Shown here: positions 8,415 through 61,552 of the stretch, in pieces
How the letters are laid out: each line of letters starts with the position of its first letter
Position numbering within the stretch: the stretch's first letter is position 1
IMG/VR virus record: IMGVR_UViG_3300030032_000362
Strand: one strand, 5' to 3'
DNA: 64,000 nucleotides
Source: a virus
Taxonomy: Duplodnaviria; Heunggongvirae; Uroviricota; Caudoviricetes
The notes under the pieces: generated by a model
Databases searched by the model: none
The model's input: only the letters and a program-made list of their open reading frames with translations
Told to the model about the DNA's origin: nothing
Made by a program: the position numbers and the translations under genes

Positions 8415-9344
8415 CTAATTATCCTTTGTTACAATAGAATTTGCGCCCTGAACCGTAATCCAACCATGAGATTTTCTAGCCTGTGCCAGCTCATAATCAA
8501 TCAGTTCTTTTGTCAAACTGTTAGAAATCTTTTTGTTCGCATTTGCTTCTGCATTGGACGAAATTTCCTTTGCTTTGGCATCTGCTTCTGCCTGCCGCTG
8601 CTTTACTTTGGCATCTGCTTCTGCTTTTTCAACAGATTTTTTGTTGTTAATCTGCTGCGTCTCGTATTCAATCTGCGCCTGCTGCTTTTTCGAAATGCGT
8701 TTATCATATTCTTTGTCAAATCCAATCTGGCTGATAACTACTTTGTTAATCTTAATTGTGTTTTCGCCGTATTTCCCATCAATAGACTCCTGCAATACTT
8801 TTAAAGTTTTTGGCTCAATCACGCTTCGATTTGTTACATCAACTGGATTTAATGTTTTAGATGCAGACTTAACAGCAGACGCTACTAACGTTTCCGGAAT
8901 CAAATTATCCGCATTTGTTACATTTGCGTAAATCCATGCAGAACGCTCCGGTAAAATCTGACAAGTTACGGTAATATCCGAAAACTGTACTGTGTTTCGT
9001 TCACTTGTTTCTGATTCAATAAGTGAATCTTCATAATATTTAACATCCTGCTGCTTGTTGTTAATCAATTCAATATGTTGCACAAAAGGCATTTTAAAAT
9101 TCAATCCATTCGATAATGGACGGTTATCAATCTGTCCAAATTTGGACGACACTCCGGTATAACCGGTTGGAATAATGGTAAATGACTGTCCGAGAACAAT
9201 AACTAAAATGCCTAATACAATTAAACTTGCCGGAATTGATTTTTTTACTTCTTCCTCTTCATAAGCTTTGTACATTATGTACCCAATTGAACTAAGTGCA
9301 ATCAGCACTCCAATAATAGTTACTACAATTTCCATTTCATTCAT
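8415..9344 (-). CDS. SPFH/band-7 family membrane protein with C-terminal coiled coil
   Basis: N-terminal TM helix. GYTGVSSKFGQIDNRPLSNGLNFKMPFVQ fits the prohibitin/stomatin core. The C-terminus is K/E/A-rich (AEADAKVKQRQAEADAKAKE). Confidence 0.5.
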   Translation of the reverse strand: MNEMEIVVTIIGVLIALSSIGYIMYKAYEEEEVKKSIPASLIVLGILVIVLGQSFTIIPTGYTGVSSKFGQIDNRPLSNGLNFKMPFVQHIELINNKQQDVKYYEDSLIESETSERNTVQFSDITVTCQILPERSAWIYANVTNADNLIPETLVASAVKSASKTLNPVDVTNRSVIEPKTLKVLQESIDGKYGENTIKINKVVISQIGFDKEYDKRISKKQQAQIEYETQQINNKKSVEKAEADAKVKQRQAEADAKAKEISSNAEANANKKISNSLTKELIDYELAQARKSHGWITVQGANSIVTKDN

Positions 9345-9549
9345 CCTTTCTTATTCATTTAACTTTACAGTTTCCTATTTTTCTTCTACATAATAATCTC
9401 CTTTCTACTAATCCCTGACGCACAAGGCCCAACGCAGTAATAGCAATTTAGTCAGGGAGTGCTGCGTTTTTTTCGAATCTCTTCGATTTGCTAACCTATC
9501 CATCCGCAGATGTAATAGGACCATATATGAATTAACTCTCTCTACATAC

Positions 9550-9614
9550 TTAATATGTCTGTTTTAAAATCAAATGAAAACCATATTATAAAGAAAATTT
9601 TCCTTACACATGTC
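9550..9614 (-). promoter_or_regulatory. Extended promoter/operator element (core motif plus inverted partner), copy 1 of 5
   Basis: TTAATATGTCTG then about 27 bp then CATATTATaAAG. It continues as AAAATTTTCCTTACACATGTC, which is shared with the 41499 copy. About 200 bp of structured leader separates it from the 8415..9344 start. Confidence 0.55.
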
Positions 9615-9898: not shown

Positions 9899-10786
9899 CT
9901 ATTCTCCTTTTTCTTTTTTTAGAGTTTCAATGATTTCTTCAATTGTACTATATTTTTTCTTTGCGTGCATACGACTATACATTTTTTTTACATCAACACC
10001 ATAAGCATCGGCAATGGACTTAATTGTTGGATATTCTTTGTCATCCACAATATAATAATACGGTCTTTTTCCTAACATTCTTAAAACCACATCATCTAGA
10101 GATTTTTCCGGGTCTTTTATCAAATTTTCTTTTAACGTTGCCTCGGATAAATCATATTCTGCACATAACGCAGTTAAATTCTTCCATTTCTTACCTAAGC
10201 AATAAAAAGAAAAATCATATCTGGACTTTACCAGAGCAAACACGGCCTCTTCAATTGTCATGCCAGAATGCTTTACTCTGTATTGCAATGTTTGGCGAGA
10301 AATATTAAACACTTTAGATACCTCACCTAAACCATAATATTTTTTGCCTTGAATGGAATAAATTTCGGTTTTGTCCTTTTGGCGCACCGGAGTATTAATA
10401 ATTCTCTCAACGCTCCATTTACGGGTCAGCCTTTTTGTTACAAGGCTTTTTGAAAGCCCGGTCATTTTCACGATTTCCTCAATTGTAATAAATTTTCCTT
10501 TATAAGTTAAATCATATTTAAGAAAACTTTTTACAACTCCAGTAATTACTTTTTCTGATTTGCGCTTCTTTGTGTTAACCGCTTCTACCAACTGTTCATA
10601 ATTGATATTAAAATGGTCGGCCACTTCACGAAGCGTATTATAGCCTTTTCTAAAAGCTATCCATTTGTAAAAACTTAATGGCTGCTCATCCAAAGAAATT
10701 GGTGTTACTTTTGAATTTTTGTTCTGTCCCATCTGTTCAACATTGCATTGTTTATTAGACAATACAAATGGCCTTCCATCAGACAA
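9899..10786 (-). CDS. DNA-binding protein made of tandem helix-turn-helix-like repeats
   Basis: At least three roughly 45-aa repeats (e.g. ...GLSKSLVTKRLTRKWSVERII... and ...ISRQTLQYRVKHSGMTIEEAV...). They are homologous to 13766..14233. The annotated start is TTG; the true start may be the internal Met. Confidence 0.45.
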   Translation of the reverse strand: MSDGRPFVLSNKQCNVEQMGQNKNSKVTPISLDEQPLSFYKWIAFRKGYNTLREVADHFNINYEQLVEAVNTKKRKSEKVITGVVKSFLKYDLTYKGKFITIEEIVKMTGLSKSLVTKRLTRKWSVERIINTPVRQKDKTEIYSIQGKKYYGLGEVSKVFNISRQTLQYRVKHSGMTIEEAVFALVKSRYDFSFYCLGKKWKNLTALCAEYDLSEATLKENLIKDPEKSLDDVVLRMLGKRPYYYIVDDKEYPTIKSIADAYGVDVKKMYSRMHAKKKYSTIEEIIETLKKEKGE

Positions 10787-11305: not shown

Positions 11306-11752
11306 TCATTTTGAAGCCTCCAATCTGCCAATCTGCCTATTGATTTTGAAATCCATTCTTCTCTCAACCACATCTTCGACTTGAAAAAGTAATTCCATCT
11401 GGCGGCACATGATTTTTACATCTGCCAATTCATCAATAATGTCCTCTCTTGCTTTATTTAAATTGATGATTTCAGATGTAGAATTTACATTTTCGCCTTT
11501 AGCAAGAGCAGATTTTCTCCTGTATTTAAGCAATGCTTTTGTCAGTTCTGACATCTCCTCGATGCACATATCGACCTGAGCCGGAGCCCCATATTCACAA
11601 ATACATCTTTTAAGTACATCATCTCTTTTGTTCGCATTATCCAATCTTTCTGCTGCTTCTTCTAATATTTCTACCGTTCCTTCAACTTCTCTTCCGAACG
11701 GTGGCGTTTTGTATGTATCAGCATATGCTCTAAGTTTTTCTGATATATTCAT
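11306..11752 (-). CDS. MazG-like nucleotide pyrophosphohydrolase (all-alpha NTP-PPase fold)
   Basis: EILEEAAERLDN and IIDELADVKIM resemble the paired EExxE/D metal-binding helices of MazG/HisE-type NTP-PPases. Confidence 0.45.
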   Translation of the reverse strand: MNISEKLRAYADTYKTPPFGREVEGTVEILEEAAERLDNANKRDDVLKRCICEYGAPAQVDMCIEEMSELTKALLKYRRKSALAKGENVNSTSEIINLNKAREDIIDELADVKIMCRQMELLFQVEDVVERRMDFKINRQIGRLEASK

Positions 11753-11772: not shown

Positions 11773-12105
11773 CTAGTCTTGTTGTAACTGCTTCTTCACT
11801 TTAATCTCGTTAAAACCAGTTTCTGCCCGTCCAATAAAAAGCATGTCTTGCTGAATAAGCGGTATTGGTTTTTCAGAGATTTTCCCTACTCTTTTGCAAA
11901 AAGCTAAATATTCCGTTATTGTTGAACGAAAATCTGCTTCTGCTTTCTTTTTGGTATAGCCCATAATCGGCAAATAGTCTTGCTCAATGTTTATATGTCC
12001 TAAAAACACTTTGTCTTCCGCAGACCAATGAATTGCCGCTTTATACCCTTTGTATGGGCCTAATACTATCTGTTCAGTCATTTTCAATTTCCTTTCTTTA
12101 CGCAA
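11773..12105 (-). CDS. Hypothetical; possibly HicB-like antitoxin fold
   Basis: IEQDYLPIMGYTKKKAEADFRSTITEYL loosely fits HicB/UPF0150. No HicA partner was recognised. Confidence 0.3.
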   Translation of the reverse strand: MRKERKLKMTEQIVLGPYKGYKAAIHWSAEDKVFLGHINIEQDYLPIMGYTKKKAEADFRSTITEYLAFCKRVGKISEKPIPLIQQDMLFIGRAETGFNEIKVKKQLQQD

Positions 12106-12184: not shown

Positions 12185-12228
12185 TTAATATGTCTGTTTG
12201 AAATGAAAATCAAAATCATATTATGAAC
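12185..12228 (-). promoter_or_regulatory. Extended promoter/operator element, copy 2 of 5
   Basis: TTAATATGTCTGTTTGAAATGAAAATCAAAATCATATTATGAAC. Confidence 0.55.
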
Positions 12229-12394
12229 AAAAAATGTATAAGTAATGCTTGTAAGTCATAAATCAGTATGTTAAAATATTGATGACTAGGTTGCAGAAAC
12301 TTGTGATGCCTGTGACCGGAAGGGAGACCTAAGGGCCTCTCTTTTTTGTTCCCAAATGGGTAGTAGAAATAAAAGTTATATCTGCATCTCCTGT

Positions 12395-13741: not shown

Positions 13742-13785
13742 AAAAAGGCTTTGGGCTGAGATAGCTCAAAGCTTTTTGCTTTTAT
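13741..13785. terminator. Bidirectional terminator between convergent genes
   Basis: AAAAAAGGCTTTGGGCTGAGATAGCTCAAAGCTTTTTGCTTTT. It overlaps the 3' end of 13766..14233. Confidence 0.55.
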
Positions 13786-14233
13786 TATATTTCTCCATGT
13801 GAATTGCCTGCTCCGGAGTTAATCCTTTTTTCCTAACACGATATAAAAGTGTGCTAGTCGGCATATTATAATCTTTAGCAGCCTTTTGTAAACTATCATA
13901 CTCTTTCCCATCCACAGTAAAAGATTCCGTCTTTTCCATAGAGCGAATTGGTGTATCAATAATTCGACTTACTGGCCATTTTCGAGCAAGTCTTTTTTCT
14001 ATAATACTCTTTGATAGCCCTGACATATCCATAATTTGTTGTATCGTCAACACTTCTCCTTGATATGAGGAATCATACTTACGCATTTTCTTTATAATAC
14101 TGGTAAGATTTTTTTCGTTCTTTCGGGGAGTAATCTCGATATTTTTCTGTAATTCTTTTAAATTAAGTTTAAAATGTTCTGCTATTTGCTGTAAATCAGC
14201 ATATTCCTTATTATATACAATCCAATTTTCCAT
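13766..14233 (-). CDS. HTH-repeat DNA-binding protein (single-module paralog of 9899..10786)
   Basis: MDMSGLSKSIIEKRLARKWPVSRII and KEYDSLQKAAKDYNMPTSTLLYRVRKKGLTPEQA match the repeat units of 9899..10786. Confidence 0.45.
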   Translation of the reverse strand: MENWIVYNKEYADLQQIAEHFKLNLKELQKNIEITPRKNEKNLTSIIKKMRKYDSSYQGEVLTIQQIMDMSGLSKSIIEKRLARKWPVSRIIDTPIRSMEKTESFTVDGKEYDSLQKAAKDYNMPTSTLLYRVRKKGLTPEQAIHMEKYNKSKKL

Positions 14234-34551: not shown

Positions 34552-34565
34552 TTTAATATGTCTGT
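34552..34565 (-). promoter_or_regulatory. Conserved promoter motif copy
   Basis: TTAATATGTCTGTT about 32 bp upstream of ATG 34520. Confidence 0.6.
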
Positions 34566-34638
34566 TTGCCTTTGTTTTTTTCTGCTATAACAAAAAAGAC
34601 ATATTATAAATATCAATCAAATAAAAGGAGGGTTAGAT

Positions 34639-37122: not shown

Positions 37123-37871
37123 TTCTCATTCCTTCTATCTCATATTCTTCTATTAATAACTCTACATTGACGTAATCATAGCTATAATCCAAAATACTTT
37201 AGCACTTTAGTTATTAAAAAAATAATAAATATTGCTAATATAGTAATTTGATTTATTTTAACGGCTTTTTCTGCGTCTCCGTGTCGTATAATTATATTGT
37301 ATCCATAAATGGCACAAACACCAAAAACACAATAGGGAATTATTGTACTTATCATTGGCTCACATCCTCTCGTTCCCTCTTAAAAGAGAATTAACATGCT
37401 GAATTCATACAATCGTATTCAAAGGAATTCATGTTGTCATCCCAACTGCTAATTTCGAAAATTTTTATTGCAACTTTTACATTGCTTTTCATAAATACAC
37501 AAAAGCTAAAAGAATTAAAGCACTTACTATTTTTACGGCGGGGCTTGTAAATGCATGTAATTCGCCACTATCAATTTTATATGAATAAAGATTCAAGGAA
37601 CAAAAAACCAAAAAAATAACAAATAATGCATTCCTTATAATAATTAGTGCCATTATCGCATCCTCCTTTTCCCCTCCTAAGCAGGAATTAGCATACTTTT
37701 TTAATGTCTCTTGAAAACTGCTCGCATCCGGTCACCAGATGCTTTGTCCTATTACTCCGAGACATGCAACTGCCTATATGCCTTACTCGTAATTATCATA
37801 TAGTTAGTCACAGTTACAGTTTTTCCAACTATTCATCGTACGAGATTACCAAAATAGTCTAAGCAGAAAAA

Positions 37872-37944
37872 TGAAAGAGTCCGGAATCGAACCGAAACTA
37901 CAGTGTGGCCGACTGTTGTGCTTAACCTTTACACTACTCTTTCA
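37872..37944 (-). tRNA. tRNA-like element with non-canonical anticodon loop (reads as GCC/Gly but lacks U33)
   Basis: Acceptor GAAAGAG/CTCTTTC. D-arm GTGT-AAAGGTTAA-GCAC. T-arm TTCGG-TTCGATT-CCGGA. The anticodon loop is CGGCCAC (G at position 33) and the variable loop is only 3 nt. Possibly a pseudo-tRNA. Confidence 0.35.
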
Positions 37945-37949
37945 AAAAA

Positions 37950-38025
37950 GGGCGTTGGCCGGACTCGAACCGGCACCTCTTAATGTATTTCACTAAGCGA
38001 GCTACCAATCGCTCTCCACCGCCAC
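37950..38025 (-). tRNA. tRNA-like element; anticodon arm is aberrant
   Basis: Good D-arm (GAGC-GATTGGTA-GCTC) and T-arm (GCCGG-TTCGAGT-CCGGC). The acceptor has one mismatch and there is an extra nucleotide before the anticodon stem. The loop is GAAATAC (A33). Confidence 0.3.
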
Positions 38026-38219
38026 GCCTGTCACGTATTGCATATGCAAGGTTGAATTTCACATTCGTTCATTAATCTATGAACGATAATAAAGACATTT
38101 ATCTACAAATTAAGCTTTTTCCTTTATACATCCACGCGCGTTAAGTAACGCTTTACAAAAAATTATTTCATATTTTTACATTTTAGTCTCGTCTCTAATC
38201 CGATTCATACAATCACCTC

Positions 38220-39317
38220 CTATCTTGAAATATCTTCATTTAACTCAGACGATGTTTTTGCGTTTGACTCAGCAGCCTTTAATGTGATTTCATTAGTTTC
38301 TAAATCATATACGCAAGAATCTTTTTCTAATTTCTCATTTGCTTTCGCCTGAATCCGGCTTTCTCTCAGCTGTTCTCTTGATACATCAGACGTTTTCTGC
38401 TCTGCCGTACCAAGCATATCTCCTAAAATACCCATAGAAGCGATGCTTTGGCTTAAATCTGTCGGGATAAAGATTTTTGTAGCCTGTCCATCCGCAACAT
38501 CTTTCATTGCTTCAATGGATTTCAAACGCAGCACGTTGTCATTCATCTGCGAATTAGCCAACATGCGAATACCATCTGCCTCTGCCTCATACACAAGCTT
38601 AATTGACTTGGCCTTGCCTTCTGCCAGTGCAATTGCGGCATCCTTTTCCGCCTCCGCAGCTAACACTTTAGCCTGACGGTCTCCTTCTGCCATTGCCACT
38701 ACAGATTCTTTGTGTGCCTGAGCCTGAAGCAATGTCTCTCTTCGCTCGCGTTCTGCACGCATCTGTTTTGTCATAACTTCTTCGATTTCAGCCGGAGGAA
38801 TAATATTTTTGATTTCTACACGACTGACGCGAATTCCCCAAGCATCTGTTGCTTCATCCAAAATCTTCTGCATTTTAGCGTTAATAACTTCTCTGGACGA
38901 GAGCGTTTCGTCCAATTCCATTTCTCCGATAATGCTTCGGAGTGTTGTTGCCGTCAGATTTCGTAATCCGGAAGATGGGTCTTCTGCACCATATGTAAAT
39001 TTCTTAGGGTCAAAAATAGTTGCATAAACAACCGAATCAATCTGCATCGTTACATTATCTTTTGTGATAACATTCTGCGGCGGATAATCCAAAACCTGCT
39101 CTTTTAAGGTAATATACCGCACTACGTTATCAATAAATGGGACTTTTACATGAAGTCCGGCCTGCCAAGTTGCCTTATATTTTCCTAATCGTTCAATAAT
39201 CCGACAGGAAGATTGAGGAACCACCTGCACATTTTTTGCAATAATACCGATTACAACCAAAACAATAACTGCTAAAATAATCATACCGATACTAATACTT
39301 ACATCCATAATAATCAC
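38220..39317 (-). CDS. SPFH/band-7 (stomatin/QmcA-YqiK-like) membrane protein
   Basis: N-terminal TM helix then QVVPQSSCRIIERLGKYKATWQAGLHVKVPFIDNVVRYITLKEQVLD and the A/E-rich coiled coil QAKVLAAEAEKDAAIALAEGKAKSIKLVYEAEADG. Confidence 0.75.
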   Translation of the reverse strand: MIIMDVSISIGMIILAVIVLVVIGIIAKNVQVVPQSSCRIIERLGKYKATWQAGLHVKVPFIDNVVRYITLKEQVLDYPPQNVITKDNVTMQIDSVVYATIFDPKKFTYGAEDPSSGLRNLTATTLRSIIGEMELDETLSSREVINAKMQKILDEATDAWGIRVSRVEIKNIIPPAEIEEVMTKQMRAERERRETLLQAQAHKESVVAMAEGDRQAKVLAAEAEKDAAIALAEGKAKSIKLVYEAEADGIRMLANSQMNDNVLRLKSIEAMKDVADGQATKIFIPTDLSQSIASMGILGDMLGTAEQKTSDVSREQLRESRIQAKANEKLEKDSCVYDLETNEITLKAAESNAKTSSELNEDISR

Positions 39318-39419
39318 CTTTTTGCGAAAACTTTTTCGCTATCCTTTCTTAAAATTCATTGTTGCTTTGTCCATTTTATTATTGGACGAACAAAACCTTT
39401 GACCTCCTTTTCGCTATTG

Positions 39420-39700
39420 TTTCCTACGGTTTCCCGCGTTGGATATTCTTCCAACGCAGGCATTTTAATTATTTCAGCAGGGACTACCGTAACGCCTGCC
39501 TTATCCGGTAATGAACCGGAATCTTGATGTGGAGAGGAATCGAACCTCACATGATGCCTTTGTCCATATCCTTTCGGCTCACTTTGGCATCGTACTTGTG
39601 GTTTCCTGCGTCTCCCTTTCCGCCACACATCAACTTGTTATTGGATGGATTCAGAGAGACCTTACGCTTCCGGAAGCGCCCCTTGCTCTAAACTAAGTTC
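39420..39700 (-). ncRNA. Structured non-coding region (unidentified RNA; several long inverted repeats and a tRNA-like T-arm)
   Basis: GCGTTGGA-tattct-TCCAACGC (8-bp stem) and GCAGGC...GCCTGC. GAGGTTCGATTCCTC is a T-arm-like motif but no acceptor stem follows it. The region carries no convincing protein-coding signal. Confidence 0.2.
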
Positions 39701-39778
39701 TGGTAAAACAACCAAATTATTACAATCTTTATCCATCTAAGATTAAAACGGTCTATTACATCACTATTGTGATGCAAA

Positions 39779-39867
39779 CGCAGACAATAGGATTTGAACC
39801 TATACACCGTTGCCAGTTACTAACGCTTTAGCAAAGCGCCGCCTTACCAATTAGGCTTATATCTGCA
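39779..39867 (-). tRNA. tRNA-Ser(GCT)
   Basis: Acceptor GCAGATA/TGTCTGC. 3-bp D-stem. Anticodon loop TTGCTAA. Long variable arm. T-arm ATAGG-TTCAAAT-CCTAT. Confidence 0.7.
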
Positions 39868-40432
39868 AAAAATAAACATGATTAAGGTTTCCCTTTATCC
39901 ATTATAAACTCAGTCATATTCGGCCACCGTGATGATAAGTCTGAGCGTTCAGGAGCGACCCTTGGCTTCTTACCACTGTCTAAGCACGAGTGGGAATGAT
40001 GCCCACAAATTTCACGGTTCTTTCAGAGAATGTTATATTTTCTATTTGCTCCGCAAAGCAAAAGATAATTTTAATTATAATTCTGCCATACCGCTACTTT
40101 AACGAATTTCTTGTGTTATACCCTGATTTCTCAGGTTTAAGGCAAACTGACTTGTTGAGATTTCCGTTTAGTCCGTGGTCTCTCACACCTCTCACATCAA
40201 CGGATTATTCCCGAACATCGGGCGTCTATTATGTCAGCCACAAGGATTCTGCTTTTGACCTCTTTATAATGATACACCACACAGCGTTGTTGACAGTTTC
40301 TGTCTTCATATCAAGAATCACTTCTTAATAAAAGTTGTTAATCAATTCAATATCTCATAATTGATTCAACTCATTACCATGCGTCTCAGCAGGATTGAAA
40401 ACTCCTTCTTCACTGAGGTAATCATGTTTAAA

Positions 40433-40503
40433 TGACGGCTGCGGGACTCGAACCCACACTTATAGGATGAAAACCTATTGTCTTACCTTTTGACTAAGCC
40501 GCC
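40433..40503 (-). tRNA. tRNA-Glu(TTC)
   Basis: Acceptor GGCGGCT/AGCCGTC. Anticodon stem ATAGG/CCTAT with loop TTTTCAT. T-arm GTGGG-TTCGAGT-CCCGC. 71 nt. Confidence 0.75.
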
Positions 40504-40774
40504 ATTCCCCTCTCTCGCAAAAAGAGAGGAGGCCAACCCAAAAAATAAAGAAAACCATAACATCTTTGAAACTCCCCGACTTGCTTTTTGCAAGTTCTCA
40601 TAACTACTAAAGATGTCTATAACTGCCAGCAAAAACCTGGTCGCAATATCTTTGTTTTGCTCTCTACAGTTACAGTTTTTTGCCAAGACCCAACCTGCGA
40701 CTGGTTAAGCCATTTTGGCTTCAGGAAGTTTGTCCTATGCGTTCCTATCCTCCCTCGCTAGAGAAAGTGAAACG

Positions 40775-40903
40775 CAAATCTGACGGTAAGGATTCGAACC
40801 TTACAAATTCGGGCAGTTCATGAAGAAAGTTTCAAATGGGAAAAAAACAAACTCTTGCAACTTATTCTTCTCGCCCGATGCATTTCCATAAATGCTAACG
40901 TCA
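40775..40903 (-). tRNA. tRNA-like gene whose anticodon stem is interrupted by about 60 nt (intron-like insertion or disrupted tRNA)
   Basis: 5' acceptor CTGACGT, D-arm GCAT-TTATGGAA-ATGC, 5' anticodon stem TCGGG; then about 60 nt; then CCCGA, ATTTG, T-arm TAAGG-TTCGAAT-CCTTA, and 3' acceptor CCGTCAG-A. Confidence 0.3.
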
Positions 40904-40950
40904 GAGCCAAGGTTCACATATGTCAAAATTTTGTCCATTATCATGGACAG

Positions 40951-41022
40951 CAGCGGTAGCAGGATTCGAACCTGCGAATACAGGAGTCAAAGTCCTGTGC
41001 CTTACCACTTGGCGATACCGCT
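40951..41022 (-). tRNA. tRNA-Gln(TTG)
   Basis: Acceptor AGCGGTA/TACCGCT. D-arm GCC-AAGTGGTAA-GGC. Anticodon loop CTTTGAC. T-arm GCAGG-TTCGAAT-CCTGC. Confidence 0.75.
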
Positions 41023-41157
41023 AGGTTTTGTCAAGGTGCTTGCTTTTCCGCCTTGACATAACAGAATAAACTATCCGAAAGAGGTGGATTATTAGTTCCA
41101 AACGCATATCATGATACATTGGAAAAATGTTTCACGATACATGCAAGCATTAAGGAG

Positions 41158-41229
41158 AGGAAGATATGGGATTTGAACCCATGACCATTCGGTTAACAGC
41201 CGAACGCTCTGCCGCTGAGCTAATCTTCC
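41158..41229 (-). tRNA. tRNA-Asn(GTT)
   Basis: Acceptor GGAAGAT/ATCTTCC. D-arm GCTC-AGCGGCA-GAGC. Anticodon loop CTGTTAA. T-arm ATGGG-TTCAAAT-CCCAT. Confidence 0.75.
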
Positions 41230-41325
41230 TTTTGCCCGAAGCGTTTGCGGTTATCACTCCGGACTTTGGGGGATTTTCTATAAATTCGATACATACGAAA
41301 AAGGTTTTCCGCAAACTTTAAGAAA

Positions 41326-41399
41326 TGGGGAGCGTGGGACTCGAACCCACGACCAACTGTGTATAAGACAGACACTCTAACCAACTGAGTTAGCTCCCT
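41326..41399 (-). tRNA. tRNA-Ile-like with UAU anticodon (reads AUA)
   Basis: D-arm ACTC-AGTTGGTTA-GAGT. Anticodon stem CTGT/ACAG with loop CTTATAC. T-arm GTGGG-TTCGAGT-CCCAC. The acceptor has 6 bp plus one A-C mismatch. Confidence 0.5.
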
Positions 41400-41498
41400 A
41401 TTTTATTGGCTGTGTTCTCCAAAAATGTGTTCTCCGCTATGTGCCCTCCTTTAATGTGTTCTCCATGTAAGAATGTTTTTTTAATCATCCTTACACTA

Positions 41499-41573
41499 CT
41501 AATATGTCTGTTTTGAATTGAAATGAAAACGATATTATGAGCAAAATTTTCCTTACACATGTCGTTACTCATT
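41499..41573 (-). promoter_or_regulatory. Extended promoter/operator element, copy 3 of 5
   Basis: CTAATATGTCTGTTTTGAATTGAAATGAAAACGATATTATGAGCAAAATTTTCCTTACACATGTC. Confidence 0.55.
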
Positions 41574-41586
41574 TGTTCTCACATTC

Positions 41587-41600
41587 TTAATATGTCTGTT
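41587..41600 (-). promoter_or_regulatory. Conserved promoter motif copy
   Basis: TTAATATGTCTGTT, followed by a GCTCCCCGAAGGGAGC hairpin terminator at about 41610-41640. Confidence 0.55.
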
Positions 41601-43916: not shown

Positions 43917-43930
43917 AATAATATGTCTGT
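43917..43930 (-). promoter_or_regulatory. Conserved promoter motif copy (ATAATATGTCTGTT)
   Basis: About 58 bp upstream of ATG 43859. Confidence 0.55.
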
Positions 43931-44004
43931 TTATCCGGCAAGATAAAATCCCAATATAAAGAAAACTGGTAGGGAAACCAGAAATTGTAACTGTAAGCAG
44001 CTAA

Positions 44005-52012: not shown

Positions 52013-52264
52013 TTACAGCTTCTTCTGCTTCTTCTGCTTCTTTTTTCTTTTTTTCTTCTGTTCTTTTTTAAAGCGCTTATATGCTCTTTCCTCTGCTTCT
52101 TTAAGAATATCCGGCGTTGCCGTTGGACCGGCGGTGATTAAAGCGCTTTGATTTTGACATTGTTCACAGGTACACTCTTTCGCAGATACTATAGAAGCAC
52201 TGCACATCATAAGACAAATAGCGGTAACGCTAAATAAAATTGCCTTCTTTACTTTTTTCAACAT
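52013..52264 (-). CDS. Small secreted Cys-rich protein with lysine-rich tail
   Basis: Signal peptide, then CTCEQCQ, then KKEQKKKRKKKQKKQKKL. Confidence 0.35.
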   Translation of the reverse strand: MLKKVKKAILFSVTAICLMMCSASIVSAKECTCEQCQNQSALITAGPTATPDILKEAEERAYKRFKKEQKKKRKKKQKKQKKL

Positions 52265-52328: not shown

Positions 52329-52372
52329 CTAATATGTCTGTTTTGAATTAAAACGAAAATCATATTATGAGC
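52329..52372 (-). promoter_or_regulatory. Extended promoter/operator element, copy 4 of 5
   Basis: CTAATATGTCTGTTTTGAATTAAAACGAAAATCATATTATGAGC. Confidence 0.55.
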
Positions 52373-52462
52373 GTTTTTTTGAAATAAGATTTCTTGAAAT
52401 GTTTGATGGAGTATGTTAAGATGCCGATATACGATAGCAATTAGTAAAAGAAAGGAAATATT

Positions 52463-52651
52463 ATGTTTGTAAAACCGATAAAAATTGAGTTGATTACATC
52501 GGACGATTCAAAAGTTGTTATAAGCCTGCATCCTAGTCAAAAATGGGAATTAACAAGAAAAGATTCCTATTTTATAGTATCACGAAAGAATATTATGCTT
52601 TTTCTAACGGAAGAAGAATTTCATAAATCTTTTCAAGAAAAAAGACCGTAG
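52463..52651 (+). CDS. Small plus-strand ORF (62 aa), hypothetical
   Basis: AAAGGAAAT RBS and ATG at 52463, followed by a bidirectional hairpin terminator (AGACCGTAGGAATTATCCTATCGGTCTCTTTCTTTTT) at about 52640-52680. Confidence 0.3.
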   Translation: MFVKPIKIELITSDDSKVVISLHPSQKWELTRKDSYFIVSRKNIMLFLTEEEFHKSFQEKRP

Positions 52652-55887: not shown

Positions 55888-55900
55888 TTAATATGTCTGT
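55888..55900 (-). promoter_or_regulatory. Conserved promoter motif copy (TTAATATGTCTGT)
   Basis: Upstream of the 55390..55857 operon. Confidence 0.55.
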
Positions 55901-57303: not shown

Positions 57304-57317
57304 TTAATATGTCTGTT
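57304..57317 (-). promoter_or_regulatory. Conserved promoter motif copy
   Basis: TTAATATGTCTGTT about 37 bp upstream of ATG 57267. Confidence 0.55.
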
Positions 57318-57402
57318 TTACACAAAAACTGAATCGTCATTATAAGAAAAAATATTTTATTTTGGTATAAAAAAGCCTAACCGTTTGGTCAGGCTTTCTT
57401 CG

Positions 57403-59244: not shown

Positions 59245-61113
59245 TCACTCCTTTTCGTTTAAAAGTGCTTTGTTTGTAATTTGCTTATCCATAACAGTGG
59301 CCAATTCAGTTACAAATCTTGATTCTCGCATCTTCTTTCCTCTTGAACGGTTTGTATACGAGATATGTAAAAAATCTTTTGCCCTTGTCATAGCTACATA
59401 GAACATCCGGCGTTCCTCTTCAATGTCATTAATCTCGCCCTTGTGTGAATATGGCGTAAAACCTTCATTAGCGTTAATAATGAATACATGTTTAAATTCT
59501 AAACCTTTAGAGCCATGCATTGTCATCAAATAGATGCCCTCTTTTGTCTCGTCAATACTCTTTTTTAGAGTAAACGTATAATCTTTTGCATATTCAACCC
59601 ATTCATCGAAAGAATCAAATGTTTTTGATGTATCAACAATCTCATCCAGAATATCAATTAATTCCTGAGGATTCATCCTGTTGTAATCCGCAAAATCAAG
59701 CAAGGCCTTTTTATAATCCATGTGATTGATTAAATAATCCAAAAAGCTTTGTAATTTCATACGGCTCATGGTTTTTATATCCTGTTTAAACCGAAAAATA
59801 TTTCTTGCAATGTATGGTTTACGATGCATAACGCCCCATTCAACTAAATCATCTAAGCTCTTGCTCTGCTGCAAGGCTTCATTAGGAATATATCGCGTTG
59901 GACGCTTTAAAGCTTTTTTGATTTCACCAAACGGAGCAGTATTTATACTTTTTCCGAGTTCATGAAAGCGAACAATGTCTTTAAAAATCCAATGTTCAAA
60001 CAAATTGACAACACCTTCTGTTTTTGCGACAAACGGAATGTCAGCATCCATTAAAACAGATGCGATTTTAGGGCATTCTTTATTTGTGCGATAGATAATA
60101 GCAATATCGTCTAGTGAGGTGCCTTTATTAAGCAGTTTTTTAATATCGCCTATAACGCCTATAGCTTGGAGTTCCGGCGTGCGGTATGGCTTAATCTCAA
60201 TAGAACCCTTTTCACGAACTGATTTGAAATCTTTATCAAATCGCTTCGAATTTGATTTAATGAATTCAGAAGCAGCACTTACAATTTTTTCTCCGGAACG
60301 ATAATTCGTATCAAGTGTAATCCTTTTTGCATTTGCTTTTTTTTCAAATGCTAACATAATTTCCGGTTTTGCTCCTCTGAACTGATAAAGTGATTGGTCA
60401 TCATCTCCAACAATACATAAATTATTGCGAGGGTTCGCTAATAATTCGATTAATTCCATTTGTGTATGACATACATCTTGACACTCATCTACCTGGATGT
60501 ATTGATATCGGTCACGCCAACAATCCAATATGTCCTTATTTTTTTTTAGTAGTTTTAAGCATTCAATCTGCATATCATCATAATCAATTTTTTTATTTTG
60601 CTTACAATAATTACAGTACTCATTGAAAATCAACTGTAATTGCTCTTCCCGGCAACCGCATTCGATGTCATAGGGCGGTTTAAGCATTCCGGATTTAATA
60701 TTACTGATAGCGCTTACCAAATCCTTGATTAAAGTATTAATGTCTTCTGTGTAAATTTTGTTGTTCTTTATGATTTCGCGCAAAACATTCCATTCATCTC
60801 TTTCTGTTAACACATTCTCATATGTATAATCAAAAGAAGTTGTTAATATAGCCAATGCAACAGAATGAATTGTGCCAAAAGTAACACCCGGTGTCTCGCA
60901 TTGAGTTAAAGCCTCATATCTCATCTGCATTTCTTTAGCAGCAGCTTTTGTAAATGTAATGACCAATATGTTGTATGGATTTACACCTTTTTCAATTAAT
61001 TTAGCCGTTCGATTTACTACAACTGTGGTTTTTCCAGAACCCGGTCCGGCCACTACAATTAACGGGCCATCTTTATGATTGATAGCCGCTTTTTGTTCTT
61101 TATTAAAACTCAT
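59245..61113 (-). CDS. UvrD/Rep/PcrA-family superfamily-1 DNA helicase
   Basis: 622 aa. Walker A AGPGSGKTT. TIHSVA. DExx block QVDECQDV. IVGDDDQSLYQFRGA. TNYRSG. MTMHGSKGLEFKHVFI. YVAMTRAK. Confidence 0.85.
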   Translation of the reverse strand: MSFNKEQKAAINHKDGPLIVVAGPGSGKTTVVVNRTAKLIEKGVNPYNILVITFTKAAAKEMQMRYEALTQCETPGVTFGTIHSVALAILTTSFDYTYENVLTERDEWNVLREIIKNNKIYTEDINTLIKDLVSAISNIKSGMLKPPYDIECGCREEQLQLIFNEYCNYCKQNKKIDYDDMQIECLKLLKKNKDILDCWRDRYQYIQVDECQDVCHTQMELIELLANPRNNLCIVGDDDQSLYQFRGAKPEIMLAFEKKANAKRITLDTNYRSGEKIVSAASEFIKSNSKRFDKDFKSVREKGSIEIKPYRTPELQAIGVIGDIKKLLNKGTSLDDIAIIYRTNKECPKIASVLMDADIPFVAKTEGVVNLFEHWIFKDIVRFHELGKSINTAPFGEIKKALKRPTRYIPNEALQQSKSLDDLVEWGVMHRKPYIARNIFRFKQDIKTMSRMKLQSFLDYLINHMDYKKALLDFADYNRMNPQELIDILDEIVDTSKTFDSFDEWVEYAKDYTFTLKKSIDETKEGIYLMTMHGSKGLEFKHVFIINANEGFTPYSHKGEINDIEEERRMFYVAMTRAKDFLHISYTNRSRGKKMRESRFVTELATVMDKQITNKALLNEKE

Positions 61114-61120
61114 ATTTTAC

Positions 61121-61423
61121 CTACTTTCTTTTTTTGATTTTGTTGTTTTTAATCACAATAGCTGCCAACGCAACAAATAAAACAATAAGAACTAATGCAT
61201 TATATTTATTGTTTTTTGCCACATCAGTCCCAATTTCTTTAAATTCTTCTTCAGGACTTAAAGTTGCTTTTGGCGTTGGGCTCGCAATCGTTGCGGCACT
61301 ATTTGTTGCGCTTTCAACATTGTATTCATATTGACTTGCAGGTTGCATTGTAGTTTCTGCCTTTGCATAATTAAATGGCAATGCCATAATTACAAGAGCT
61401 ATCATTAAAATATATTTTTTCAT
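61121..61423 (-). CDS. Small secreted/membrane-anchored protein (signal peptide plus C-terminal TM)
   Basis: MKKYILMIALVIMALPFNYAKAE and a C-terminal LVLIVLFVALAAIVI. Stop and start are 7 bp from the helicase gene. Confidence 0.4.
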   Translation of the reverse strand: MKKYILMIALVIMALPFNYAKAETTMQPASQYEYNVESATNSAATIASPTPKATLSPEEEFKEIGTDVAKNNKYNALVLIVLFVALAAIVIKNNKIKKRK

Positions 61424-61484: not shown

Positions 61485-61528
61485 TTAATATGTCTGTTTT
61501 TAGATGAAATAAAAATCATATTATGAGA
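61485..61528 (-). promoter_or_regulatory. Extended promoter/operator element, copy 5 of 5 (plus a degenerate core copy at about 61451-61464)
   Basis: TTAATATGTCTGTTTTTAGATGAAATAAAAATCATATTATGAGA. Confidence 0.55.
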
Positions 61529-61552
61529 AAAAAGGCTTCATTAGAAGCCTCT

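Follow-up and report, generated by a model that had tools for sequence, protein, structure and literature searches.

Composite core-plus-module promoters as a candidate regulatory class in a large conjugative element of gut bacteria

A block of about 50 bp recurs five times in the window, by which we mean the whole 64,000-nucleotide stretch of DNA analysed here, and it raises the question of what kind of signal such a block represents and which genes it governs. An earlier note read it as an operator-like element, in which inverted arms about 27 bp apart bracket a promoter and are bound by a dimeric regulator, and took the five sites to mark a subset of operons. We propose instead that the five sites are composite minus-strand promoters, in which a 13-bp core and a 28-bp upstream module would be read together as a separately tuned promoter class, an explanation to which the sequence evidence leads us to give an even chance.

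The copies that had been placed at 9550, 12185, 41499, 52329 and 61485 are all present, with TAATATG beginning one base later in each (9551, 12186, 41500, 52330 and 61486; Table 1). The pattern TAATATGTCTGTT-N19-ATATTAT gives five matches in the window and none in 100 dinucleotide-preserving shuffles, and the right-arm block AAAAyCATATTATGAG, searched in the window at zero to two mismatches, is found at these five sites only. In four of the five copies the arms TAATATG and CATATTA match over all 7 nt, although 24 nt rather than about 27 lie between them and the right arm of the copy at 41500 reads GATATTA. The further 21 bp said to be common to the first and third copies (GACATGTGTAAGGAAAATTTT on the minus strand) is there, and it is kept at both promoters in relatives. 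All five sites are oriented for minus-strand firing, and therefore the targets of the sites at 41500 and 61486 lie on the other side from that assigned before. The former would drive the tRNA/ROOL array itself rather than the first operon beyond the array, and the latter would drive a 100-aa gene and a UvrD-like helicase gene, while the HD-domain gene, taken previously as the HD-GYP target, lies upstream. The labels MazG and HicB, also given to one unit in that note, have no Pfam confirmation. A structured RNA or DNA hairpin at the five sites was considered and rejected, as RNA folding gave z-scores of -1.2 to +0.5 against shuffled sequence and hence no extra stability, and no Rfam family was matched there. 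The leader that separates the SPFH start codon from the 9551 promoter (9345-9545, minus strand) contains a long-range CCCTGAC...GTCAGGG pairing and likewise has no Rfam match.

Table 1. Coordinates of the promoter features, with the composition of the module by position. Positions are those of the window unless a contig is named; negative positions are counted from the inferred start.
Feature	Position	Strand	Remarks
Core promoter AACAGACATATTA	9551..9563	-	Inferred -18 to -6; inferred start near 9545
Predicted target of the 9551 promoter, SPFH/Band_7 gene	8415-9344		Reached via a leader of ~200 nt
Upstream module tttt-tct-T-TATAATATG-g-TTTT-ca-ttt	9571..9598	-	Inferred -26 to -53
Extra 21 bp GACATGTGTAAGGAAAATTTT	9594..9614	-	Same block at the 41500 copy
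Core 12186-12198 with module 12206-12233	12186..12233	-	Predicted to drive ORFs 11773-12105 and 11306-11752
Core 41500-41512 with module 41520-41547	41500..41547	-	Arm variant ATC
Predicted target of the 41500 promoter	37871-41400		tRNA array, ROOL RNA, second SPFH gene
Second promoter, core-only	41588-41600		88 bp upstream of the 41500 promoter
Core 52330-52342 with module 52350-52377	52330..52377	-	Predicted to drive small secreted protein gene 52013-52264 and downstream ORFs
Core 61486-61498 with module 61506-61533	61486..61533	-
Predicted targets of the 61486 promoter	61121-61423; 59245-61113		100-aa signal-peptide protein gene; UvrD-like helicase gene
Degenerate version	57305..57352	-	Core and TTATAAT in register; ATG and T-run lost
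Degenerate version	43919..43966	-	TTATATT in the window, TTATAAT in relative L160; same register
Back-to-back core pair	34554..34606		34554-34566 minus; 34594-34606 plus, toward the primase-like gene
Sources of the lineage core series	L122, L123, L125, L195, L196, L197; window 34554-34606		Intergenic region of primase-like and ~480-aa genes in the L contigs
Candidate sigma factor gene	L199 10001-10876; also L162, L166		Encoded by relatives that share the same core
Module (35 contexts)	-53 to -50		A/T only
Module	-49		T 31/35
Module	-48		G 22/35
Module	-47		C 23/35
Module	-46		T 35/35
Module	-45		y
Module	-44 to -39		ATAATA
Module	-38		T; C in 5
Module	-37		G 30/35
Module	-36		r
Module	-35 to -32		TTTT
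Module	-31, -30		y, r; R-30 in 34/35
Module	-29 to -26		TTTt; T at -29 to -27 in 30-32/35
Between module and core	-25 to -21		Five variable positions
Before the core	-20, -19		AA, then core

The part of each site that is shared most widely is the core. There are about 26 copies of TAATATGTCTGTT in the window, almost all on the plus strand, and at up to two mismatches the window has 32 matches where 4.2 would be expected. Read on the minus strand this sequence is (A/G/T)(A/G)CAGACATATTA, and its copies are oriented, lying 20-45 nt 5' of a ribosome-binding site and usually with a terminator just upstream. The primase-like gene is the sole plus-strand gene cluster that has the core motif, which is reversed there, and in six lineages the 100-160 bp between this gene and a gene of ~480 aa upstream of VirD4 hold two back-to-back cores. 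The core consists of a CATATT hexamer, with A at -11 and T at -7, together with an invariant G at -14, and the hexamer is followed after 6 nt by a purine. Counted from the inferred start, T at -1 and a purine at +1 are found in all 35 of the module contexts described below, and T at -1 in 74 of 81 core-only contexts. This is the -10 geometry of the sigma-70 family (A-11, T-7 and a purine about 7 nt on), given that the start position is an inferred one. Among close orthologues the core has no differences at all (0/273). Lineages in which VirD4 is 45-58% identical have the core variants AATAGTCATACTA, AAAGGTATACTA, TAGGTATGTT and AGCAGACATACT, all of which have G-14, A-11 and T-7. An assignment of CAGACA in the core as a -35 element with a -10 element downstream was rejected because it fits one copy only. 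The 13-bp core AACAGACATATTA would behave as a promoter of the extended -10 type, and the even chance given above applies to core and module jointly. The lineages also provide a series of cores (CAGACATATTA, TAGTCATACTA, GGTATACTA, GGTATGTTA and CAGACATACT) in which G-14, A-11 and T-7 are always retained, and which is a natural set for studying the co-evolution of sigma factors and promoters.

The fit of the core to AACA-N6-TW, the pattern of the late promoters of jumbo phage AR9, had prompted a phage reading of the whole stretch. That reading was rejected because the window encodes a VirD4-like coupling protein of the CD1115 family, VirB4-like and VirB6-like proteins, a cell-wall hydrolase and two giant LRR/Flg_new adhesins, and because other lineages break the AACA. 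The stretch, though filed as a virus of the Caudoviricetes, is a large conjugative element of gut bacteria and not a phage. Its genes, almost all on the minus strand, also include those of ImmA/IrrE-like proteases, RadC, a UvrD-like helicase and two SPFH proteins, and its RNA genes are seven tRNAs and one ROOL RNA. The ROOL RNA is full-length and lies inside the tRNA array at 39864-40441 on the minus strand (Rfam RF03087, 368 bits); it is apparently co-transcribed with the seven tRNAs and the SPFH gene from the promoters at 41588 and 41500. A relative about 95% identical is present in Clostridium sp. AF37-5. In a search for the nearest annotated phage and plasmid records no plasmid matched and one unannotated 11-kb 'Bacteriophage sp.' fragment matched an adhesin gene, and an exact-protein look-up of the VirD4 returned no record. 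Scans of viral contigs with the 15-mer, with the extended pattern and with a TAGTATG-type pattern gave chance matches only or none. Literature searches for the motif strings returned nothing relevant and those for comparable gut elements were likewise empty, and in these searches no description of the motif or of the module was found.

The module is present on roughly a fifth of the core promoters. A scan of metagenome contigs with the extended pattern gave 67 loci, of which about 50 belong to the family, and these were reduced to 35 distinct contexts; most of the family loci share only the promoter element with the window and have unrelated flanks. The same block recurs in the same register in all 35 contexts from relatives, in agreement with the view that the sites mark a subset of operons. 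The consensus is an asymmetric 28 bp, W4-TGC-T-yATAATAyG-r-TTTT-yr-TTTt, at inferred positions -53 to -26. Because the search pattern fixed or restricted ATAATAT, several neighbouring positions and the spacing, these features are partly conserved by construction, but the other module positions were free, and T-46, A/T at -53 to -50, T-49, R-30 and T at -29 to -27 are conserved among them. The register is also constant in all ten promoters from loci that were not selected by the pattern, five in the window and five in contig L199 (one with a variant T-run). No module was seen without a core, and across the 81 core-only contexts there is no conserved upstream element beyond terminator T-tracts, with a few intermediates that keep TTATAAT in register. 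The sole off-register module promoter is that of L137/L139 (AAACAGAACAGACATATTA), in which a 5-bp AACAG duplication shifts the module by half a helical turn and which thus amounts to a natural spacing mutant. The pentamer-repeat spacer of the window (TGAAA-like) is not conserved in relatives.

Between close orthologues, module differences (3.4%) are hardly rarer than those of the flanks (4.2%), which counts against the module model, and the case for selection therefore rests on the comparison of unrelated contexts. The promoter at 55889 is core-only in the window, with a weaker core (TACAGAC), and its orthologue in L142, about 93% identical, has the full module together with AACAGAC, so the module is gained or lost on short time scales. 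A hidden Markov model of the module, run against lineages with other cores (~110 kb, mostly transfer regions), had no match beside their cores. In the small sample of about 25 promoters from five other lineages there is no same-register block, and in two of them CATACTA is preceded by TAGTATG, but at distances of 33 and 45 nt.

The lineage-specific cores are most naturally explained by a recognition factor that has evolved along with the element. In ~600 kb of related sequence, a search with the conserved E. coli sigma-70 segment as its seed found one ORF, P0123, which encodes 291 aa. Its product passes the Pfam cut-offs for Sigma70_r4 and r4_2, shows full-length alignment to sigma factors of solved structure, FliA and SigF among them, and is 28% identical to SigD. 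It is thus predicted to be a group-3-like sigma factor of the sigma-28/sigma-F-like kind. The gene is absent from the 64,000-nt window, and only three things tie it to window-like contigs: a common motif, occurrence in the same metagenomes and comparable coverage. In the relatives it lies in an operon 324aa-68aa-sigma behind a module promoter. On the sigma contig L199 there are also genes for PolIII alpha, a topoisomerase, SSB, a RecJ-like protein, a signal peptidase, a Tad4-like protein and an integrase, with that core motif upstream of them all. Together with the actin-like partition protein of a further related contig (L157/L191), this gene content suggests a very large, self-sufficient conjugative element. 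We envisage that the core is probably read by RNA polymerase with this sigma-28/sigma-F-like factor of the element family.

How the module would act together with the core can be framed more closely. Something that touches module and core together is suggested by four features: the register is fixed, 5 bp are variable, conservation over 28 bp is asymmetric and no copy stands alone. The module would then be contacted jointly with the core. In a polymerase version, the contacts would be made by sigma region 4, at about -35 to -27, and by the alpha C-terminal domains, near -42 and -52 where the A/T blocks are centred; in a regulator version, an element-encoded protein would occupy a class-II position centred at about -41; and both versions may apply at once. 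Our guess is that the effect would be activation, that is, stronger expression. The TTTTyr segment lies 17 bp from CATATT, and its poor fit to the published -35 consensus sequences counts against this explanation. Most operators are palindromic and the module is not, in that ATAATAT alone is symmetric and the flanking pairs show no co-variation. As judged from these alignments, the module is a real regulatory signal, but probably not a two-armed operator.

The two-armed operator is nevertheless the reading from which this analysis began, and it holds that a dimeric element-encoded regulator binds TAATATG and CATATTA and so brackets or occludes the promoter, making one repressed regulon of the five operons. 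The arms are perfect in 25 of the 35 contexts as well as in four of the window copies, the repeat search gives 16-nt arms at 75% for the site at 61486, and the arm centres are about 31 bp apart, near three helical turns, and therefore on the same face of the helix, although half-sites at such a distance are unusual for one dimer. The right-arm block does recur in relatives, but in the other 10 contexts it reads TAATACG, TAATATC or TAATATA with the core unchanged, and orthologous promoters vary between ATG and ACG. The repeat is thus broken without compensation and the symmetric reading is only partly supported: the promoter-overlapping, selected cis-element stands and the symmetric operator probably does not. 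Moreover, T-46, the TGC and the two T-runs lack a mirror-image counterpart, and the left arm is the -10 end of every core promoter and so cannot alone define a subset. The two other-lineage promoters with TAGTATG upstream of CATACTA could be taken as the same arrangement at other spacings; the ~110 kb sampled from lineages with other cores, however, has no cognate block in the same register. Two tandem-HTH proteins encoded nearby are possible regulators. They are paralogues built of HTH modules of ~50 aa (13766-14233, minus strand, 3 modules; 9899-10786, minus strand, 5-6 modules), and in relatives about 89% identical in DNA the short one is 99-100% identical and the long one 56-59%. Neither has a family, PDB or fold match. 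The 155-aa HTH protein has near-identical homologues only, and its AF2 model, of moderate quality (pLDDT 68), has no significant PDB match, the I-TevI DNA-binding domain at rank 2 (E = 2.3) not being evidence. The symmetric bracket model is consequently weak, and we regard it as quite unlikely. In reverse complement the module reads yrAAAAyCATATTA, which resembles the core aAAACAGACATATTA, and this resemblance is consistent only if G-14 and C-16 are replaced by A. A distinctly improbable alternative, of about the same standing, takes that literally: the module would be an inverted core copy of shifted specificity (G-14 to A, C-16 to A), read by a second element-encoded factor in a two-state switch. 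That factor may be a paralogous sigma-like protein or a tandem-HTH array protein spanning ~40 bp, and if this were true the switch would be one between 'resident/maintenance' and 'transfer' programmes, and would be a promoter design for which no counterpart has been described.

The same bases can also be read as promoters of other kinds. An overlapping promoter of host sigma-A, with yATAAT at inferred -45 to -40 as its -10, would give expression ahead of the element sigma or in its absence, and leave sigma-specific expression from the core for later; the perfect or near-perfect TATAAT inside the module fits this proposal, which we consider unlikely. The hexamer is TATAAT in 13 of the 35 contexts and CATAAT in 22, it survives in the degenerate versions at 57305 and 43919/L160 and in the PolIII promoter, all arm polymorphisms (ATG, ACG, ATC, ATA) fall outside it, and the gene set resembles 'early/maintenance' functions. 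Promoters of the -10-only and extended -10 types are common in Clostridia (PMC7438776). The canonical TGnTATAAT is found in four of the 35 contexts, but in most the TG is one base out of register (TGCTCATAAT), so the module does not have the extended -10 form of host sigma-A, TGnTATAAT with a start 6-8 nt on. Nor does this reading explain the fixed register to the core, the lack of solitary modules, the conserved upstream TGC-T or the downstream GrTTTTyrTTT, and its start would be expected inside the T-run. The clear sigma-A-type promoters of the element differ, having the form TTGnnn-N17-TGnTAAnAT at 12249-12277 and 52393-52421, and a promoter of that canonical type is also present in the sigma operon, some 75 nt upstream of the module there. 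Those two window promoters, of similar TTGnAA-N17-TGtTAAnAT type, lie in the plus-strand regions 12249-12345 and 52393-52651, both with AGTATGTTAA, and face away from the module promoters; the one at 12249-12277 is followed by ~60 nt and a terminator-like hairpin, and so may make a small RNA, and that at 52393-52421 by a 62-aa ORF. Two of the three plus-strand gene clusters of the window adjoin module promoters, and genuine back-to-back core pairs exist, as would suit a module that is an inverted, specificity-shifted core firing on the plus strand to make short antisense or terminator-only RNAs or to insulate against read-through. On that strand the module does read CATATT, ATrAGC and a purine at the mirrored start in 35/35 contexts, followed by an A/T run. 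It is, however, without the G-14 that is invariant in all real cores of all lineages, its equivalent of A-11 is replaced in five of the 35 contexts, only the upstream terminator lies ahead of it in most contexts, and the two neighbouring plus-strand clusters have canonical promoters of their own. The back-to-back pair at 34554..34606 serves as a comparison because its spacing varies between lineages, as it does in true divergent pairs, whereas the spacing of the module is fixed, and a divergent promoter is thus very unlikely. What remains is that the module is a functionless remnant of a duplicated promoter cassette spread by recombination. That close orthologues conserve it no better than their flanks, and that orthologous promoters gain or lose it (55889 without, L142 with), agree with such a relic, yet about 20 near-invariant positions persist in 35 contexts in which the neighbouring 5 bp have changed to saturation and the flanks bear no relation to one another, and the association with gene classes is non-random, which makes this reading barely credible.

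The composite promoter explanation also gives the two promoter types distinct sets of genes. In the window the module promoters precede an SPFH gene, a small-ORF pair, the tRNA/ROOL/SPFH array, small secreted proteins, and the 100-aa protein with the UvrD-like helicase. In relatives they precede genes for RecD2, an AAA ATPase, the actin-like partition protein, the signal peptidase, the Tad4-like protein and PolIII alpha, as well as the integrase operon and the 324aa-68aa-sigma operon. The core-only promoters precede the VirB4, VirB6, VirD4, hydrolase and adhesin operons. The module class would thus comprise maintenance, replication, anti-defence and stable-RNA genes with the sigma operon, and the core-only class transfer and adhesins. 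The regulatory grammar of the element becomes readable in this way: each transcription unit has one 13-bp core, the core varies between lineages, and the module sets off a second architectural class. Should maintenance, replication and anti-defence prove to be separated from transfer by the module, it would provide a handle for predicting and engineering the expression of large conjugative elements in gut Firmicutes, an annotation of operons from sequence alone, and a route to the trans-acting factor.

In kind the module is a promoter upstream element or an operator and involves no new principle, and no known class fits module and core in every respect. One of the nearest known systems is an UP element with a -35 region, as at rrnB P1 and the sigma-D-dependent flagellin promoter of Bacillus subtilis: A/T blocks near -42 and -52 precede an element in the -35 region, their register to the -10 is fixed, the promoters concerned are a subset with a stable-RNA operon among them, and a candidate sigma-28-family factor goes with them. 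The module is, however, far more sequence-specific than UP elements (T-46 invariant, ATAATA fixed by the search pattern, G/C at -48, -47 and -37), and its TTTTyr matches no known -35 consensus well. The KorB class I operators of the IncP-1 plasmid RK2 lie about 39-40 bp upstream of the start, and the module, like these operators, those of KorA or the R388 network, is repeated in many copies at a fixed position on a subset of the promoters of a conjugative element and sorts operons into groups. It differs from the KorB/KorA operators in being non-palindromic, in having a Firmicute as the host of its element, and in belonging to promoters that are element-specific and not of the ordinary host type; no cognate repressor gene or ParB-like protein for it was identified on the element. 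The middle promoters of phage T4, which combine a MotA box at -30 with a -10 element, share with it a -10-driven core, no canonical -35 and a conserved upstream box at fixed spacing, but the module is longer than the MotA box and further upstream, and the element appears to bring a sigma factor of its own and not to appropriate one. The extended -10 promoter TGnTATAAT has been described for Clostridioides difficile (PMC7438776), and the core, too, is an elongated -10 region that has G at -14 but lacks a conserved -35, while the module contains yATAAT; the core, however, has AG and not TG, with 13 fixed lineage-specific bases, and the TG of the module is mostly out of register. Finally, the conjugative-transposon sigma factors of Clostridia are, like the candidate described here, sigma-70-family proteins of mobile elements presumed to transcribe their own element, and their promoters are essentially undefined (PMC7438776). 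Here, unlike there, a candidate consensus with two architectural classes can be read from the sequence, and the element thus supplies a candidate promoter grammar for the mobile-element sigma factors of Clostridia.
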